This document shows positions 56,199 to 63,191 of a stretch of DNA of 64,000 bases, piece after piece. Every line of letters starts with the position of its first letter. The stretch's first letter is position 1. The position numbers were made by a program, and so were the translations under genes. The notes beneath the pieces are model-generated. The model did no database searches and was not told the DNA's origin. It was given only the letters and a program-made list of their open reading frames with translations. The stretch is from an uncultured Actinomycetes bacterium (GTDB lineage Bacteria; Actinomycetota; Thermoleophilia; UBA2241): positions 45,331 through 109,330 of the forward strand of contig CAWHYB010000006.1 in the NCBI GenBank assembly GCA_963833555.1, read 5' to 3'.

Positions 56199-56460
56199 AC
56201 GGGCGTGTCAAGTGGGGGTCTGACCCGAGAGAGCGGCGTCTTACCGCACGATCGGGTCGCCAGGGGGGTAACGAGCGGTGCAGGTCCATCCCGTCGCCTT
56301 GTCGCCGAGGCTCGTTCGACTCAAAACGCCTTCGTTTCCGACCACGTCGTGAGCTCCCGCTCAGCGTGGTCGGCGGCCTGAACCTTCCTGAGGAGGTGCG
56401 ACGGCTGATCGCCGTCGCTCCCAGCAGGACCGGTAACTCGAGCCACGGAAGGTGATCTCA

Positions 56461-58330
56461 GTGAGTCAACGTTTCACGCGTCTCGCGCTGCTTCTGGCGC
56501 TGGCGCTCGTCGTTCTTGCCCTGTGCGCACCCCTCGCGCAAGCGAAGCCCCGGGCCGCCGACACGGTCTTTCTGAAGGGACGCGTCGCCGCCTACCAGGG
56601 CTACAAGACCGACTCCAGCAACTGGAGCTGGCAGAGTGCCGTCGCCGTGAGGGACGGCAAGATCGTCTATGTCGGCACACAACGCCGAGGCCCGGCGCTT
56701 CGTCGGCGCCGAGACGGAGGTCGTGAACCTCAAGGGCAAGATGATGATGCCCGGCCTGGAAGACGGACACACGCACCTGCAGGGGTACGTCGCCTGCAAC
56801 ATGGATTACGAGGGCGGCACGATCGACTACATCCTCGGCAAGATCAAAGCCGCTCTCGAGAGGTCCGACCAGGCCGACATGCTGCACAGCAACTTCGTGC
56901 TGACCTGCAGCTACCTAAGCGGAGCTTCCATCCTGCCGTCCGGCACCCAGCTGACGAGCCACGACCTCGACCGTCTGAGCCTGCCCCTTGACTCCGGCGA
57001 TGCCATGGCGACGGGCACGACTCGCCCGATCGTCGTGACCGATCTCGACGGGCACAAGAAGTGGGTGAACAGCCAGGCGATGCTCAACGCCGGCATCGAT
57101 GCCGACACACCCACGCCGCCTGGCAGCACCATCGGCCACTACCCCAACGGCGAGCCCAACGGCTTCTTCTCCGACTACACCCCGCCGGCGCCCTGGGGAG
57201 ACTCGACGGCGGCGAACGACAAGTACGCGGGGTTCGTGACCTCGCTGCAGCTCTACAACGAGACGGGCACGACCAGCATCGAGAAGGCCAGTGGTGTGCT
57301 GGCCGACCTGCCCGTCTGGAAGCAGATCGCAGACGACGGCAAGCTCACCATGCGGGTGAACTCGCAGGTGACGGCCGCCTGGGTCCATGGAATGACAGAC
57401 CCAACTGCAATCCAGGCAAAGATCGACGAGATGAATGCGGCCAGAGCCGAGTACAGCGGCTACAAGAGCCCCAACAGCCCGGGCTCGTTGACGGTCGACA
57501 CCGCCAAGATCTTCGCCGACGGCGTCGCGGAGTATCCGGCACAGACGGCCGCCATGCTGCAGCCCTACAACATCAACATCGGCACCGACGAGAACCCTCT
57601 CTGGGTGATCGGCTCGAGCCGCGGAGCGGACCCGACGGTGACCGATGCCGTCCCCGGCTTCCTCGCCCTCGATGTCAACCACTGGACGATCCACGTGCAC
57701 GCCATCGGCAACCGCGCCGTGCGCGACACGCTCGACAACTACGAGCTCATCGAGCAGACCAACCCGAAGTGGGACCGTCGCGAGCAAATGGTACACGTGC
57801 AGTTCGTCGACCCGAAGGACATGCCGCGTTTCGGTCAGCTGGGCGTCGTTCCCGACATGCAGCTGCAGTGGGCCGAGAACGACAGCTACACGATCGATGC
57901 CCTGCAGCCCTTCGTGAGCCCGCTGGTCTACAAGACGATGTACCCGACGCGCAGCCTCATGCTGGGCGGCGCCGTCCTTGCAGCCGGCAGCGACTTCCCC
58001 GTCGATGCGCTCGCCCCATGGCGGCAGATCGAGCAGACCGTGACGCGCGCCGGGGTGCCCGACGAGAACATGGGCATCTATCCGGGCGCACTCCTCTACA
58101 AGGAGCATCTCACGCTGAAGCAGGCCCTGCGCATGGCCACCATGGGCACGGCCTATCAGCTGCATCAGAACAAGGTGACAGGCTCGATCAAGGTCGGGAA
58201 GTTCGCCGACCTCATCGTGCTGAACCAGAACCTGTTCAAGATTCCGGCGAGCAAGATCCGGGACACCAAGGTCCTCATGACCATGGTCGGCGGCAAGGTT
58301 GTCTGGCAGGATCCATCGAACCCGCTGTGA
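56461..58330 (+). CDS. Secreted YtcJ/NfdA-like amidohydrolase (amidohydrolase 3 family); frameshift near 56690
   Basis: Signal peptide (AQA), AVAVRDGKIVYVG, PGLEDGHTH, KIFADG, HVHAIGNRA, HVQ, AGSDFPV, GSIKVGKFADLIVL. Confidence 0.9.
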
Positions 58331-58464: not shown

Positions 58465-58980
58465 TCAGAGACCCGCCAGCGTCCTTCGCACGTCCTTCAT
58501 CAGGATCATGAGCTGGAGTGGGTTCGCCGGCGACGGCTCGAAGCCGTGGCGCAGGTAGAAGGTCCGCGCCCGCTCATCCTTCGCGTGGACGACCACGATG
58601 CGTGCGCCGAGAATGACCGCAGCCTCGGCGCAACGCGCGAGCGCCTCGATCAGCATCGCGCTGCCGATACCGCGGCCCTGCTCGGTCCGGTCGACGGCCA
58701 AGCGGGCCAGAAGGATCGCCGGGATGTCGTGTGGCCCTTGCCCCTTGGCGGCTCGCTCGGTCGCGTCCTCTGCGGCCAAACTCGTCGCCGCCAGGCTGAA
58801 GTACGCGACTACGCGGCCGTTGCGCACGGCCACGTAGGTCCTCGACTTGCCGGCCCGTTGATCGGGGAGCGCCTGCCCGGTCAGGTAGTCGTTGAGCGGG
58901 CCGACGCCGCAGTCGAAGGCTGCGATCTCATGTGAGGGGTCGAGTGGGGAGGGACCGAGGAAGGGGTCAGCCGTCGGCAA
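58465..58980 (-). CDS. GNAT acetyltransferase toxin (TacT/AtaT/KacT type)
   Basis: FDCG..LNDYL, LLARLAVD...GRGIG, VHAKDERARTFYLRHGF; TTG start overlapping the antitoxin stop. Confidence 0.9.
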   Translation of the reverse strand: MPTADPFLGPSPLDPSHEIAAFDCGVGPLNDYLTGQALPDQRAGKSRTYVAVRNGRVVAYFSLAATSLAAEDATERAAKGQGPHDIPAILLARLAVDRTEQGRGIGSAMLIEALARCAEAAVILGARIVVVHAKDERARTFYLRHGFEPSPANPLQLMILMKDVRRTLAGL

Positions 58981-59242
58981 ACGGGCTGCGCCTAGAGGCG
59001 GCCTCGCGCAGACCGGGGAGGACGCGCGCGGGGCGGTCGAGGCGGGCGACGAACTCATCCCACTTGTCGGCGGGAACGACGAAGCGCGTCTGGTCGGCCA
59101 GCACTTCTTCGGCGGCACGCAGCGTCGCCTGCAGCATGAACTGACTGAGCGGCATGTGGCTGAGGCTGGCGGCCTGCTCGACGACCGCCTTCTCATCCTC
59201 GGTCACCCGGATGTTCAGAGATTTGTCCTTCACGACCGCCAT
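58967..59242 (-). CDS. DUF1778 ribbon-helix-helix antitoxin (TacA/AtaR/KacA type)
   Basis: LNIRVTEDEKAVVEQAA...LSQFML...AAEEVLAD...WDEFVARLDRP; GGAGG RBS. Confidence 0.92.
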   Translation of the reverse strand: MAVVKDKSLNIRVTEDEKAVVEQAASLSHMPLSQFMLQATLRAAEEVLADQTRFVVPADKWDEFVARLDRPARVLPGLREAASRRSPFADG

Positions 59243-59280
59243 GGCGGCATGACCTCCGACTGGATTTGACTGCGCGGACA

Positions 59281-59309
59281 GTGTACCCACAGGTGGTGGG
59301 CATGTACAC
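59281..59309 (-). promoter_or_regulatory. TA operon promoter/operator with GTAC half-sites
   Basis: Inverted repeat GTGTAC(59281)...GTACAC(59304); on the - strand TGTACA-N17-TACACT, so the half-sites coincide with the -35 and -10 boxes. Confidence 0.65.
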
Positions 59310-59398
59310 ACAATGTCAACACAAGCTTGCGACAAGACCAGTAGCGGCTCGGCCTCGTCGCCGTCGTCTTTACGGCTTGAACTTGGTGAGTAGCTACC

Positions 59399-59536
59399 TC
59401 CCTGAGCTACCTCTCACTCGAGGGCCTGCAGGACGCCATCGGCCTGCCCGCCGAGCTGTTCACGCGCGAGGGCTTCACCTGCGAGTATCCCGTCCCCGTC
59501 CCAGAGCAACCGGAGATGGAGAAGCTGCGCTTCGGG
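59399..59536 (+). pseudogene. purF: Degenerate 3' fragment of amidophosphoribosyltransferase
   Basis: SLSYLSLEGLQDAIGLPAELFTREGFTCEYPVPVP...EKLRF matches the PurF C-terminus (DSLxYLSLEGL...CxACFTGEYP); the Cys ligands are lost and there is no upstream gene body. Confidence 0.75.
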
Positions 59537-59615
59537 CGTGGGGCGGCCTGATCACAACACGGGAGCCGTGCACGGCGTAGTCGACTGGAGGTCTGTTGAC
59601 GATTCGCCTCGCCCG

Positions 59616-59698
59616 TTGACTTGGCGCCTCAGGAGGGGATAATCACTCCACTGTCCCCGTGCTCGACGCGGGGCGCGAAGCCGCCTCCGGGCGGCTTC
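59616..59698 (+). ncRNA. Candidate short two-hairpin RNA with its promoter, upstream of the NYN gene
   Basis: TTGACT-N16-GATAAT (59616-59643); hairpin 59655-59673; perfect 9-bp hairpin GAAGCCGCC-TCCG-GGCGGCTTC (59677-59698) followed by a pyrimidine-rich tail. Confidence 0.4.
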
Positions 59699-59724
59699 TG
59701 CTTCATCTGGGGGGATTTGTCACC

Positions 59725-60389
59725 TTGACAGAGAGTGTCGAGCTGAAGCCGAGCACCTCCGTGTACATCGATGGCTTCAACTTCTACTACGCGGCTTTCC
59801 ACCGGGCGAACTTCGGCTCCTACAAGTGGCTCGATCTTCCCGCGTTGTGCAAGGTCGCCTTGCCTCGCAACGACATTCAGCTCGTTCGGTACTTCACTGC
59901 ACCACTCAATCCGTCGCACGGGCGGGCGGGTCAGCGCGCCAGGCAGGATACCTACCTCCATGCTCTCCACACGCTGCCCGGGCTCTCGCTCCACTTCGGC
60001 CAGTTCGTCGAGCATGCGAAGACACAGAGGTTGGTTCATCCCCCGAGAGGTGCGGCGAGAGCGGCCGAGGTGTGGGTGCCAGAGGAGAAGGGCAGCGACG
60101 TGAACCTCGCCACGTACTTGCTGCTCGATGCGTTCAAGGCCGCGTGTGACGTGGCTGTGGTCGTGTCGAACGACGCTGACCTGCTGGAGCCGGTGCGGAT
60201 CGTGCGTGAGGAACTCGGGCGAACTGTCGGCGTGTTGCGGGTCGAGGGCGGTCAGCGACGCTGCATATTCGCCGGACGCGTCGACTTCATCCGGCCCTTG
60301 CGCGAGCGGCATTTCGCTGTAAGCCAGTTGCCCGCAGTCGTGGCCGACTCAAGAGCAAGCAGTTCAGGTGCCCGCCAGAATGGGCATGA
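59725..60389 (+). CDS. NYN-domain (PIN-like, LabA/DUF88 clan) ribonuclease; indel near 60352
   Basis: YIDGFNFYY, YKWLDL, VRYFTA, EEKGSDVNLA, VVSNDADL; the shifted frame gives the natural end KQFRCPPEWA*. Confidence 0.87.
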
Positions 60390-60435
60390 ACTGCCGCCGC
60401 CCGTATGGGCGGCGGATGTAGCGTCCTTCGCCCGC

Positions 60436-61080
60436 CTAGAACAAGTCCGTGACGGTCACCGACAGCGCCTCGTCGACCCGCTCGGGGCAGTCGGACGCAG
60501 TGACGTCGCACCACGCGCACTCCGAGGCGCTCGCGGCCTTCGGCGGCGCCTCGGCGGCCGCGGCGACGTCCATGTACTCCTTCAGCATGGCGCGGAAGCG
60601 GTCGTCGACCTCGGACGCCGCGATCGCGACCGCGTCGTCGCGGTACTGCACCTCGCCGCGCAGCCGCCGGCCCCGGCAGTGCACGACGCTGGCCGGCAGC
60701 GCGACCATGTAGGTGAGCACCTGCAGCTTGTCGGAGGTGCGCTCCTTGCCGGTCTTGCAGTCGATCACGAAGGCGTCGTCGCCCTTGACGGCCACGATGT
60801 CGGCCTTGCCGGCCAGCGTGGCCCCGCTGGCGCCCTTGAGCTTGAAGGCGTTCTGGCCCTCGAGGTAGACCGCGTAGCCCTGCGCCCGCAGCTCGTCGGC
60901 GCGGGCGTGGAGGAGCTGCGTGTGCTCGGCCGTCCACCTGGCCAGGTCGAAGTCGCTGGGCAGCTTGGCGTAGGAGTGGTTGGCCCGGAACCAGAGCTTC
61001 CAGCGGCACGACTCCTCGCCGGCCATCTGCTTGGTCAGCCAGGTGACCCAGACGTAGGTGCTCGATCGTGGTTCGGCCAT
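60436..61080 (-). CDS. PD-(D/E)XK (RecB/Cas4-like) nuclease with a four-Cys Fe-S staple
   Basis: N-terminal SCRWKLW Cys; GKAD, IDCKTG, QVLTY motifs; C-terminal CAWC-x6-C. Confidence 0.85.
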   Translation of the reverse strand: MAEPRSSTYVWVTWLTKQMAGEESCRWKLWFRANHSYAKLPSDFDLARWTAEHTQLLHARADELRAQGYAVYLEGQNAFKLKGASGATLAGKADIVAVKGDDAFVIDCKTGKERTSDKLQVLTYMVALPASVVHCRGRRLRGEVQYRDDAVAIAASEVDDRFRAMLKEYMDVAAAAEAPPKAASASECAWCDVTASDCPERVDEALSVTVTDLF

Positions 61081-61184
61081 GGCGTGACTCCCGGGATCGC
61101 CGCAGGGACTACAAGGCTACTCGCGGGCGGGGACGGAAGAAAGGGGCGCCGCCGGCGGCGAGTTCGGCGAGGATGAGCTGCCAA

Positions 61185-63191
61185 CTACTCGGCGGAGAGC
61201 ATACGGATGCCGCACTCCTGCAGCCAGCCTGCGGTCTCATCGAGTTCGGGCATCGGCGGGATGAAGATGATCGAGCAGTCACGCCCGCGGGTGAGCAGCA
61301 CGCGATAGGCGTTCAGGCGGAGCTGGAAGGGATCCCGAACGTGAGCTGAACGAGCGTGCCGTTTCGCCCAGGCGTTGGACCACCGGCTACGAGCGCGCAC
61401 GAGGTCCAAGCCCCACGCGAGCAGGACGCCGTCGAGCTCCAGCCCCTGGGCGCCGAACTCGGTCACGCAATCTCGCAGATGGCGACAGGAGTACTGACTC
61501 GCGTGTTCGTTGTCGCCGTACCACGGTCCGAGGCGCAGGTTCTTCGTGTCATGCCATCCGTTGCGCACGCCCCAGTCTTCGAGCGCTTTGTCTCGGGATG
61601 AGGCTAGCAGGCCGAAACGAGCCTCCGGCGCGTCCGCGTAGCGAGCGCGCAGATAGTGACGCGCCTCGTTGAGGTCGCGCGTCATGCGCAGATGGTAGGC
61701 CTGCTGTTCAAGGCGGCTGGCCAGCTCGCGACAGTGCGCGGCGACTGAGCCCGCCTCGCCTTCGCACACCTCGTCCGGCCAGGCGCGATCATCCGCCAGT
61801 AGCCCGTCGACCCAGGCGTCGAGATCGGAACAGAAGTGGAAGCGGAGTTCGACTTGCAGGTCCAGCGCCTCGTCGGCAGTCAGCAGGGCGGGAAGGGTGG
61901 CGCCATCGCTATCGTCGCCGGCAAAGAACTCATCCAAGACCCGCTGTGGCGCATGGACAGTCCAGTCGTCGGGTCGACCGGCCTCAGCGAGCGCGCCGCG
62001 CCACTGTCCGAGACCCGCCTCCTCTCCGGTGTTGATCTCCTGGCCGGAACCGATGAGCCCAACGAGCACGCACCATTCCGGGATGCGCTCGCCGAATTCC
62101 ACGAACGCCTCTGGTTCAGAGCGGTGCTGACGCAGCTCGGGGTGCTTGGCGATCACCTGATCAAGGTCCCAAGCACGCTGTGCCTCGTCGTAGACAATCA
62201 CGTGCTGCGGAGGCACCGCGGCCTTGTCGCCGAGGTACTGCTTGACGTAGTTCTTCACGTCGCGAACGAAGGTCTTGCCACTGCCGCCAGCGTCGCGCAG
62301 CTCGTACTGCAGCACCTGCACCAGCGGTCCGTTCCCCGAGAGGAAGATCGCCGGCGCGGACGGTTTGCCGCCAGCACGCTCCACCGCGAGGTCATCCAGA
62401 GCGGGGTTGTGGACGGCGCTGAGCCCGACAAGGGTCTTGCCCGACCCGGGTACCCCCGTGACGAGCACGAGATGCCGTGAATGCGTGTGCGCGGCCTCGT
62501 GGGCGATGCGAGCGATCTCATCGATGGCCGGCTGGGTTGCGGCGCGGGCACGATGAATCGGTCTGATCTTGTTGTCCAAGAACAGCTCGCGAGCGGCCTG
62601 GACGAGAGTGGGGAGTGGGCAGTACGCGTCACGCGCAAGGAACTCATCGGCGGTCAGTGCACCATCGTCCCACGGTCGCTGGAGATCCTGGATCAGCTCG
62701 TGGAGGGCGTCGGGGCCGGCGATGTGAACGCCATCGTGCACCCCTGCGTACCCGTGCGCCCGCGTCGGCACGACGACCGCATGAACTTCTCGTTCGGCAC
62801 AGTGTCGGTGATAACAGCGAAGGTCGCGCGCATACGCGGCCGCTTGGTCGAGATCCGCCTGTTCGGGTTCTTGCTTGCCCTTGAGCTCGAGGACAACGAT
62901 CGCGCCACTGACGAGCAGCACGACGTCGGGTCGCCGCGACTCCATCGGCAGTTCGTACTCGAGAATGGCAGTGTAGGAGTCGGCGAGGTCGTCGAGGACG
63001 ACGACCTCGCCGACCTCATGCTGGAGTTTCGGAATCGACTCGTCCCAGGCGAAGACTTGCGACTCGCTCACATCGGCGAGGAAATCCTCGAGCGAGATGC
63101 GGACGATCCTGGGCTCGGTCTGCGAGAACGTCGGGAAGTCGCTCTCCCAACCGCAGCGAGCGCGTGCCGCGTCACTCGGCTTGATCACCAC
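61185..63191 (-). CDS. DUF2075 (Schlafen group 3-type helicase) protein with an N-terminal PD-(D/E)XK nuclease domain
   Basis: RRPDVVL...LELKG...QAAAY nuclease; GVPGSGKT Walker A, YDEAQRAW Walker B, GSGQEI, EFGAQGLELD, NAYRVLLTRGR. Confidence 0.88.
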   Translation of the reverse strand: MVIKPSDAARARCGWESDFPTFSQTEPRIVRISLEDFLADVSESQVFAWDESIPKLQHEVGEVVVLDDLADSYTAILEYELPMESRRPDVVLLVSGAIVVLELKGKQEPEQADLDQAAAYARDLRCYHRHCAEREVHAVVVPTRAHGYAGVHDGVHIAGPDALHELIQDLQRPWDDGALTADEFLARDAYCPLPTLVQAARELFLDNKIRPIHRARAATQPAIDEIARIAHEAAHTHSRHLVLVTGVPGSGKTLVGLSAVHNPALDDLAVERAGGKPSAPAIFLSGNGPLVQVLQYELRDAGGSGKTFVRDVKNYVKQYLGDKAAVPPQHVIVYDEAQRAWDLDQVIAKHPELRQHRSEPEAFVEFGERIPEWCVLVGLIGSGQEINTGEEAGLGQWRGALAEAGRPDDWTVHAPQRVLDEFFAGDDSDGATLPALLTADEALDLQVELRFHFCSDLDAWVDGLLADDRAWPDEVCEGEAGSVAAHCRELASRLEQQAYHLRMTRDLNEARHYLRARYADAPEARFGLLASSRDKALEDWGVRNGWHDTKNLRLGPWYGDNEHASQYSCRHLRDCVTEFGAQGLELDGVLLAWGLDLVRARSRWSNAWAKRHARSAHVRDPFQLRLNAYRVLLTRGRDCSIIFIPPMPELDETAGWLQECGIRMLSAE

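Follow-up and report, generated by a model that had tools for sequence, protein, structure and literature searches.

The window analysed here is a stretch of 64,000 nt from an uncultured Actinomycetes bacterium (contig CAWHYB010000006.1, positions 45,331 to 109,330), and it carries a small two-hairpin RNA gene directly upstream of a gene for an NYN nuclease. Comparative sequence evidence establishes that this RNA gene is structured, is under selection, and is genetically coupled to the NYN gene in layouts that are compatible with action in trans. We see about an even chance that the pair is a module resembling toxin-antitoxin (TA) systems of type III, or resembling AbiF/RCd22, in which the RNA would bind the NYN protein and hold the nuclease inactive as an RNA antitoxin. 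The parts of the window locus (with the two hairpins termed P1 and P2) are as follows.

59616–59643, plus strand: sigma-70-type promoter of the small RNA, with TTGACT at 59616–59621, a 16-nt spacer and GATAAT at 59638–59643 (10/12 matches)

59650–59708, plus strand: predicted small RNA of about 59 nt, comprising an ACUGU 5′ tail, P1, a 1-nt spacer, the P2 terminator and a U-rich tail (both ends inferred)

59655–59673, plus strand: hairpin P1, with a 7-bp stem CCCCGUG/CGCGGGG and the loop CUCGA

59675–59708, plus strand: hairpin P2, an intrinsic terminator, reading GC and GAAGCCGCC, loop UCCG, GGCGGCUUC, bulged U, GC, and the tail UUCAUCU

59709–59715, plus strand: a run of G (GGGGGGA) that probably serves the NYN gene as its Shine-Dalgarno sequence, directly 3′ of the terminator tail (read from sequence)

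59725–60351, plus strand: gene for a HEC-09-family NYN (PIN-like) nuclease, as far as it is in frame between the TTG start and a frameshift

An earlier sequence-only reading of this locus had described a near-consensus promoter, two adjacent hairpins (the second a perfect 9-bp stem with a pyrimidine tail), and a ribosome-binding site followed by an NYN nuclease with all its catalytic Asp residues; each of these parts is borne out. We scanned 59300–60700 (1.4 kb, both strands) for signals, with shuffled sequence as the control, and TTGACT-16-GATAAT was the only sigma-70-like site found, where shuffles lead one to expect 0.1. The P2 core is the perfect 9-bp stem GAAGCCGCC/GGCGGCUUC at 59677–59698, lengthened by the pairs G59675–C59701 and C59676–G59700 across the bulged U; its tail, UGCUUCAUCU, has its last base at 59708. 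The fold energy of the element is −41.4 kcal/mol (z = −3.1 versus dinucleotide shuffles). Two covariance models of the RNA, R1 from 7 sequences and R2 from 79 sequences, match the window at 59644–59713 with 79.6 and 63.9 bits, respectively, the R1 score including a self-match since the window sequence is one of the seven behind that model. The 2.49-Mb genome from which the window comes has a single copy of the RNA. The NYN gene starts with TTG at 59725, 17 nt beyond the RNA tail; there is no space for a separate promoter between the two, and transcription of the NYN gene must therefore be by read-through. The RNA gene of the window is intact. Its P1 loop is a variant, because the family consensus has UUCG or another UNCG loop (on a stem of 8–10 bp); the UCGA-type variant recurs in the second RNA copy at locus L089. 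We also considered whether the hairpins are coding sequence: a GTG in P1 is in frame with the NYN gene in the window and in the relative L082, but not in L086, and the idea was rejected.

The same architecture is found in relatives of this locus. NYN genes with 56–75% identity, on unrelated metagenome contigs and with differing neighbours (RhuM, DUF3800/SLFN, AbiE, TacAT, ParE, integrases), all have the −35 and −10 boxes, the short tail, P1, the spacer, P2 and the U tail. Among close relatives the P1 pairing is fully compensated, taking the forms CCCCGUGC/GCGCGGGG, CCUCGCUC/GUGCGAGG, CCCGGGC/GCCCGGG and CCUGAGC/GCUCAGG. Between the window and its relatives, identity is 70–86% in the RNA, 63–69% in the coding sequence and 47–57% in the flanks further upstream. 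The RNA is thus more conserved than the coding sequence and far more than the flanks, which at the level of sequence shows it to be under selection.

Aligning the regions upstream of NYN homologues, a check that the sequence-only reading had proposed, showed the twin hairpins to be conserved and to covary throughout. The 79-sequence alignment has double changes at 17 of the 17 modelled pairs (8/8 in P1 and 9/9 in P2). Pairing was intact in 97.6% of the paired cells, as counted in alignments fitted to the model structure, versus 78.9% in shuffles (none of 500 as high) and 34–57% with slid partners; for P2 the figure is 99.6%. The family consensus reads A-Y-N-CC, a P1 of 8–10 bp, one pyrimidine, a P2 of 2 + 9 bp with a bulge, and the end UGCUUUUU. 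The P1 loop is UUCG in 53 of the 79 sequences and most remaining loops are other UNCG types; the two G-C pairs where P1 meets P2 hardly vary (columns 66/67 in 76–77 of 79, columns 119/120 in 73 of 79), and a U-rich tail is present in 68. An Rfam 15 covariance-model search with the window element gave no match at E ≤ 10, and the same search with three canonical copies (L160, L107, L098) gave none at E ≤ 1. Plasmid NYN genes of Xanthomonas citri (L219, 1883–1974) and Granulicella tundricola (L220, 1897–1983) have a weaker RNA variant upstream, in which, for Xanthomonas, P1 is much longer (a 32-nt insert instead of 12); these long-P1 variants imply that the RNA family is broader than the present model.

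The gene arrangements speak for an RNA gene in its own right. We collected 98 RNA copies: 72 lie upstream of the NYN gene on the same strand, 22 are downstream and convergent with it, three are divergent (L060, L062, L079), and one is a second copy downstream on the same strand. The convergent copies abut or overlap the NYN stop codon by 0–10 nt, and two of the divergent copies (L060 and L062) have a textbook TTGACG-17-TATAAT promoter. More generally, a promoter-like site scoring at least about 9/12 was found for 62 of the 98 copies, from all arrangements including the convergent one, and the best-scoring −10 box ends 0–5 nt before the model start in 73 of them. With three orientations and its own promoters, the RNA is therefore an independent gene and not merely a 5′ leader. 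At loci of the same-strand layout, 0–20 nt lie between the U tail and the NYN start, often without a Shine-Dalgarno sequence, and the NYN genes of convergent loci look leaderless; the close spacing and frequent lack of a Shine-Dalgarno sequence in same-strand loci imply that the NYN protein is made by terminator read-through and is probably poorly translated. In the NYN tree the convergent layout occurs mostly in Actinomycetota-type clades. A Dehalococcoidia metagenome-assembled genome (MAG) has two tandem RNA genes, each with its own promoter, ahead of one NYN gene (L059, 3869–4054).

The pairing of RNA and NYN gene extends far beyond the relatives of the window. We searched with the covariance model 80 genome loci whose NYN proteins are at most 47% identical to that of the window, and found the RNA adjoining the NYN gene in about 76. 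These loci span 14 named phyla, plus a Bacillota MAG and Leptospira plasmids (16 counting both). The RNA was also present in 32 of 40 viral contigs encoding NYN, at all four of the plasmid loci scanned (with the weaker longer-hairpin variant at two further plasmid loci), and at the single prophage locus scanned. Mobile carriage of the NYN protein is common: it is encoded in 129 plasmid records (Xanthomonas, Escherichia, Klebsiella, Leptospira and others). One of the plasmids, a ColE1-type plasmid of 3461 bp (L107, NZ_CP091696.1), is identical in four E. coli genomes and found also in Serratia, with the RNA directly 5′ of the NYN gene. This plasmid has RNAI at 2248–2349, and its only annotated cargo is a helix-turn-helix protein, a VbhA-family antitoxin-like gene and the RNA–NYN pair. 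The layout is convergent in a Paenarthrobacter plasmid and in the Mycobacterium prophage prophiGD43A-1. The neighbours TacAT and PDC-S41 in the window, and AbiE, RhuM, DUF3800, ParE and integrases elsewhere, amount to a TA/defence context.

The two genes are linked within genomes but are lost unequally. The window genome has one NYN gene and one RNA, and in 30 relatives the strong matches of both are mostly co-located. We then took an even sample of 151 genomes from the phylum of the window; its 15 strong RNA matches comprise eight beside an intact NYN gene, three beside NYN stumps and four alone, while its 11 intact NYN genes comprise eight with a strong RNA, two with a weak variant and one with no RNA. 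At L229 (G126:C1:402118-402442), which accounts for two of the three stump cases, two RNA genes 250 nt apart are each convergent with a mere C-terminal NYN stump; to judge from these stumps, the nuclease has been deleted and the RNA retained twice in this genome. Further RNAs beside a stump or alone are found at L221, L136, L223, L119 and L165. Locus L089 (1837–5300) has three RNA–NYN cassettes in 3.5 kb, of which the first is intact, the second has a C-terminal frameshift and the third a broken N-terminus; DUF3800, SLFN helicase and ParE/RelB genes neighbour these cassettes. Because the RNA outlasts the NYN gene and an intact NYN gene is rarely without the RNA, this is the pattern that would be expected of an antidote RNA and a poison protein. 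A pattern scan of viral sequences matched 109 stretches; 80 were checked and six were true (one with an intact NYN gene, one with a stump, two strong orphans and two weak matches), and a stricter scan gave a single match. We had considered phage-borne orphan RNAs as counter-defence, but these cases are too few to lean on.

Assignment of the protein is by profile and by predicted fold. A Pfam scan of the window proteins at E ≤ 0.01 gave PF01936 (NYN) at 26.6 bits versus a cut-off of 24.2, over residues 11–173. The PADLOC profile HEC-09 (PDLC04163) matched with E = 4.4e-32 over positions 5–146 of its 203, and an intact relative (P0001) matched with E = 3.8e-36 over positions 5–202. The NYN protein of the window has 75% amino-acid identity to relatives of 217 aa, and more than 4,500 NYN relatives were found, mostly of about 217 aa with the C-terminus ..KPxEW just before the stop. 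Residues D16, D125, D150 and D152 are invariant in 47 family sequences, and all four are kept in the window. An AlphaFold2 model of the NYN protein (pLDDT 94.8, pTM 0.88) gave as its best Foldseek matches VPA0982 (2qip, E = 1e-7) and the NYN domain of MARF1 (5yaa/6fdl, E = 1e-4, TM 0.6 on the target); a PDB sequence search with the family profile found no relative, and these matches came from the fold search alone. On profile and modelled fold the window protein is a member of the NYN and HEC-09 families, with predicted nuclease activity.

Four further features concern the end of the NYN gene and the sequences beyond the RNA–NYN pair.

60352–60358, plus strand: approximate position of a 1-nt gap (frameshift), from DNA alignment with four close relatives and two-frame translations

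60353–60389, plus strand: +2-frame remnant of the normal C-terminus, ..KSKQFRCPPEWA and stop, with the nearly invariant P..W motif

59596–59601, plus strand: second TTGACG box, 14 nt 5′ of the −35 box

60394–60415, no strand assigned: 9-bp GC hairpin, CCGCCGCCC, GTAT loop, GGGCGGCGG, between the convergent NYN and Cas4-like genes (read from sequence)

The sequence-only reading had ended the NYN gene at 60389 and so overlooked the frameshift: the TGA at 60387–60389 is out of frame with the NYN start, and the in-frame open reading frame (ORF) extends to 61176, antisense through the Cas4-like gene. Two-frame translation shows that the C-terminal ..KSKQFRCPPEWA of the window is encoded in the +2 frame. 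The frameshift falls about 14 codons ahead of the normal stop of the family, with loss of the C-terminal G..P..W residues (found in at least 90% of 47 sequences), and as assembled the window copy lacks the intact ORF of about 205–225 aa, ending in ..KPxEW, that is a feature of HEC-09. The source genome is a MAG in nine contigs, 52% complete. An amidohydrolase gene 3.7 kb upstream (window 56452–58330) is apparently frame-split as well, at about 56672–56682, its first ORF having a signal peptide and ..DGKIVYVG and its second the entire Amidohydro_3 domain. This nearby second apparent frameshift suggests an indel-prone assembly or gene decay, so that for the NYN gene the two explanations, an assembly indel and real decay, are equally plausible. 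The NYN frameshift is either early decay of the putative toxin half or an assembly indel; a look-up via the adjoining Cas4-like protein found no independent assembly of the locus on record. As a member of the family, the copy in the window is unremarkable and in part degraded, with its frameshifted nuclease and variant P1 loop.

The setting of the locus is a TA/defence island. Divergent from the small-RNA promoter is a complete type II pair (58465–59335, minus strand), consisting of a TacA-like antitoxin (PF08681) and a GNAT acetyltransferase toxin. Downstream (60436–63191, minus strand), a gene for a Cas4-like PD-(D/E)XK nuclease is convergent with the NYN gene and is followed by an SLFN group-3 helicase that matches the PADLOC candidate PDC-S41 (E = 3e-118); the two are possibly a two-gene defence unit. 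The sequence-only reading held that no protein antitoxin adjoins the NYN gene, and indeed, between the TacA/GNAT pair upstream and the Cas4-like gene downstream, a Pfam scan of the window neighbours found no candidate for one. The hairpin at 60394–60415 is probably a bidirectional terminator; searched with the covariance model of the RNA family, it is not a copy. The upstream TTGACG box is kept as GGTTGACRTT, at equal distance, in the subclade of the window (L082, L085, L086, L089) and is inverted (GTCAAC) in L089 copies 2 and 3; an operator or a further promoter element may be what it represents. Between TacA and the RNA promoter, a short stop-to-stop frame at 59406–59552 (plus strand) has gene-like codon usage (..LEGLQDAIGLPAELFTREGFTCEYP..GAA, then stop) and no start codon; it may be what is left of the C-terminal end of a gene since lost.

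How might the pair work? Under the RNA-antitoxin reading, the strong sigma-70 promoter and the built-in P2 terminator would cause most transcripts to stop, yielding an abundant free RNA of about 60 nt, while rare read-through transcripts would carry the NYN message and give little nuclease. The RNA would bind NYN and keep the nuclease inactive, as ToxI does with ToxN or RCd22 with AbiF; loss of the RNA supply, through phage shut-off or plasmid loss, would free the nuclease. Carried on defence islands, plasmids and prophages, the pair could in this way be a toxin-antitoxin or addiction module or act in abortive infection. We infer the binding of RNA to protein, the toxicity of the protein, the trigger, and the defence or stabilisation of the carrier.

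Several observations weigh against this reading. Tandem RNA repeats cut by the toxin are the classical type III hallmark, and there are none in 59400–60500. In the one published test of this protein family, as far as the passages available to us go, HEC-09 was cloned together with its native promoter region and did not protect E. coli from the phages tried; no toxicity is mentioned in these passages (bioRxiv 10.1101/2024.01.29.577857). The persistence of orphan RNAs could equally be explained by a function of the RNA's own. The alignments behind the pair counts were fitted to the model structure, which inflates the pairing percentages; the compensated P1 changes were first noticed in raw, unfitted sequences. 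On the NYN tree, parsimony gives five changes of arrangement, but the well-supported branches force only one, and the idea of repeated independent origins of the convergent layout was set aside.

A different possibility, which we rate as unlikely though deserving of some weight, is that the RNA is a positive partner of NYN: an obligatory subunit, scaffold, sensor or substrate, or an RNA that NYN processes, the two together making a ribonucleoprotein effector. The near-invariant G66, C67, G119 and C120 and the UNCG cap are what one would see in a specifically recognised shape, and the orphan RNAs still score 42–65 bits, suggesting usefulness without NYN. In PRORP, NYN domains have as their target a helix with a 5′ leader that is single-stranded, and the RNA here has a similar shape, which we take as a lead only. 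The lack of reported toxicity and of defence in E. coli, as far as the available passages on HEC-09 go, would fit as well. Yet the RNA is almost wholly paired and has no variable guide-like segment, the promoter–terminator layout would make it in large excess over the protein, and the asymmetric loss, in which NYN decays and the RNA stays, suits an antidote better, since a cofactor could vanish with its enzyme. One form of the idea, about which we are rather doubtful, makes the RNA an integral subunit of an RNA-dependent nuclease particle in which the rigid two-helix RNA would position, gate or sense for the enzyme. Within it, and with the same doubt, the RNA could for example serve as a pseudo-substrate that infection releases, or it could sense phage enzymes that modify RNA, in a particle spread on mobile elements across most bacterial phyla.

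More doubtful again is a purely cis-acting leader, with the hairpins as a transcription attenuator gating NYN and no RNA product that acts in trans. The element does sit between the sole promoter and the NYN start in 72 of the 98 copies, and because the start lies 0–20 nt past the U tail and a Shine-Dalgarno sequence is often lacking, NYN expression in this layout, that of the window included, is bound to be held down by the terminator. The 22 convergent and three divergent copies, which have their own promoters, cannot be leaders, however, and orphan copies are kept with no NYN gene downstream. The fold shows no evident alternative pairing that could act as an antiterminator, and there is no conserved upstream competitor; the sole downstream complement of the terminator arm in the window (59741–59751) is absent from L082, the one close relative compared (by eye). 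The sequence-only reading had allowed for attenuation of the RNase; the convergent and divergent copies contradict this if it is meant to act in cis alone. We consider it improbable that the RNA is instead an antisense regulator of type I kind, pairing with the NYN mRNA through its C-rich 5′ tail on a G-rich ribosome-binding site or through the 3′ overlap of convergent loci, and thereby stopping translation or setting off decay of the message. A run of six G (GGGGGG) forms the NYN ribosome-binding site of the window and its subclade, and the RNA contains a run of C; in the predicted fold, CUCCA is paired with UGGGG; at convergent loci the RNA terminator abuts or overlaps the NYN stop by 0–10 nt, and convergent type I loci such as par/fst of pAD1 have a comparable 3′-end overlap. 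Against this, the commonest layout has the RNA in the sense of the mRNA leader and most of the C-run is buried in P1; moreover, many NYN genes have no G-rich Shine-Dalgarno sequence and the convergent ones look leaderless, so that anti-Shine-Dalgarno pairing is not general. Finally, the element might lack a function and be no more than a generic terminator, or what remains of a promoter, carried along by a mobile NYN gene; the cassette is indeed mobile and often degenerate, but compensated pairs over 14 phyla, RNA conservation above that of the coding sequence, an own promoter and survival in three orientations make such a lack of function most improbable, and this explanation is already disfavoured.

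We return to the RNA-antitoxin reading and compare the pair with known systems. The type III systems (ToxIN, CptIN, TenpIN; PMC3401426, PMC8860590) share with it the order of promoter, antitoxin RNA, terminator and RNase gene, the lack of a protein antitoxin, the excess of RNA over toxin through terminator read-through (which is predicted here), and carriage on plasmids, prophages and defence islands. The terminator of the window, P2 with its U-rich tail 17 nt ahead of the NYN start, conforms to that order, as does the layout of 72 of the 98 copies. Type III antitoxins, however, are tandem repeats processed by the toxin, whereas here there is a single two-hairpin unit, and the two tandem RNA genes at L059 are whole genes, not processed repeat units. 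The toxin also differs: in place of an endoribonuclease of the ToxN/CptN/TenpN type there is an NYN/PIN-like metal-dependent nuclease, for which Pfam gave NYN only, PADLOC gave HEC-09 only, and the fold is that of the MARF1 NYN domain. The RNA gene here can, in addition, be convergent with or divergent from the nuclease gene. With no tandem repeats and another toxin fold, membership in classical type III therefore fails. The type III-like RNA-antitoxin system that the sequence-only reading had proposed accordingly holds in its module layout (through the conservation, the promoters, the linkage and the RNA outliving NYN) but not as type III proper.

In the form of the RNA there is a likeness to AbiF (Abi_2) and RCd22 of a Clostridioides difficile prophage, where a structured RNA lowers transcription in cis and binds the protein in trans (PMC12373285). 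There too a non-repeat structured RNA lies just 5′ of a solitary gene for an RNase-type toxin. The folds differ (Abi_2 versus NYN), the RNA family is distinct (no Rfam match, including to the abiF motif), and the NYN-linked RNA is far wider taxonomically and occurs in three gene orientations. The HEC-09 candidate of Payne et al. 2024 (bioRxiv 10.1101/2024.01.29.577857) is the same protein family, alike in its NYN/MARF1-like fold and in the three or four Asp residues; the passages of that paper available to us treat a single protein gene and mention no RNA, and the RNA partner is what we add. The VapC PIN toxins of type II systems are likewise small solitary PIN-like Mg-dependent RNases that act as toxins on mobile elements (a role that is predicted here), but VapC is neutralised by the protein VapB, encoded upstream, whereas an RNA gene takes the upstream place here and the protein is not PIN proper but NYN.

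The sequence-only reading knew of no described NYN-based example, and this agrees with our searches, which found no description of NYN linked to an RNA partner in the literature searched and none in Rfam. If the RNA controls the nuclease, an NYN/PIN-like nuclease would for the first time be part of an RNA-antitoxin-type module, and the RNA would be a new and very widespread structured family (present in 14 named phyla or more, on prophages, and on plasmids of E. coli, Klebsiella, Xanthomonas and Leptospira). It would also explain why the HEC-09 defence candidate resembles a lone toxin gene. The question is directly testable, with the 3.4-kb natural E. coli plasmid that carries the pair as a natural test bed. 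Relative to the known systems, the novelty appears to lie in the fold of the nuclease and in the family of the RNA, both new for an RNA-controlled RNase module; such a module would extend RNA–protein TA biology past the three classical type III families and AbiF.

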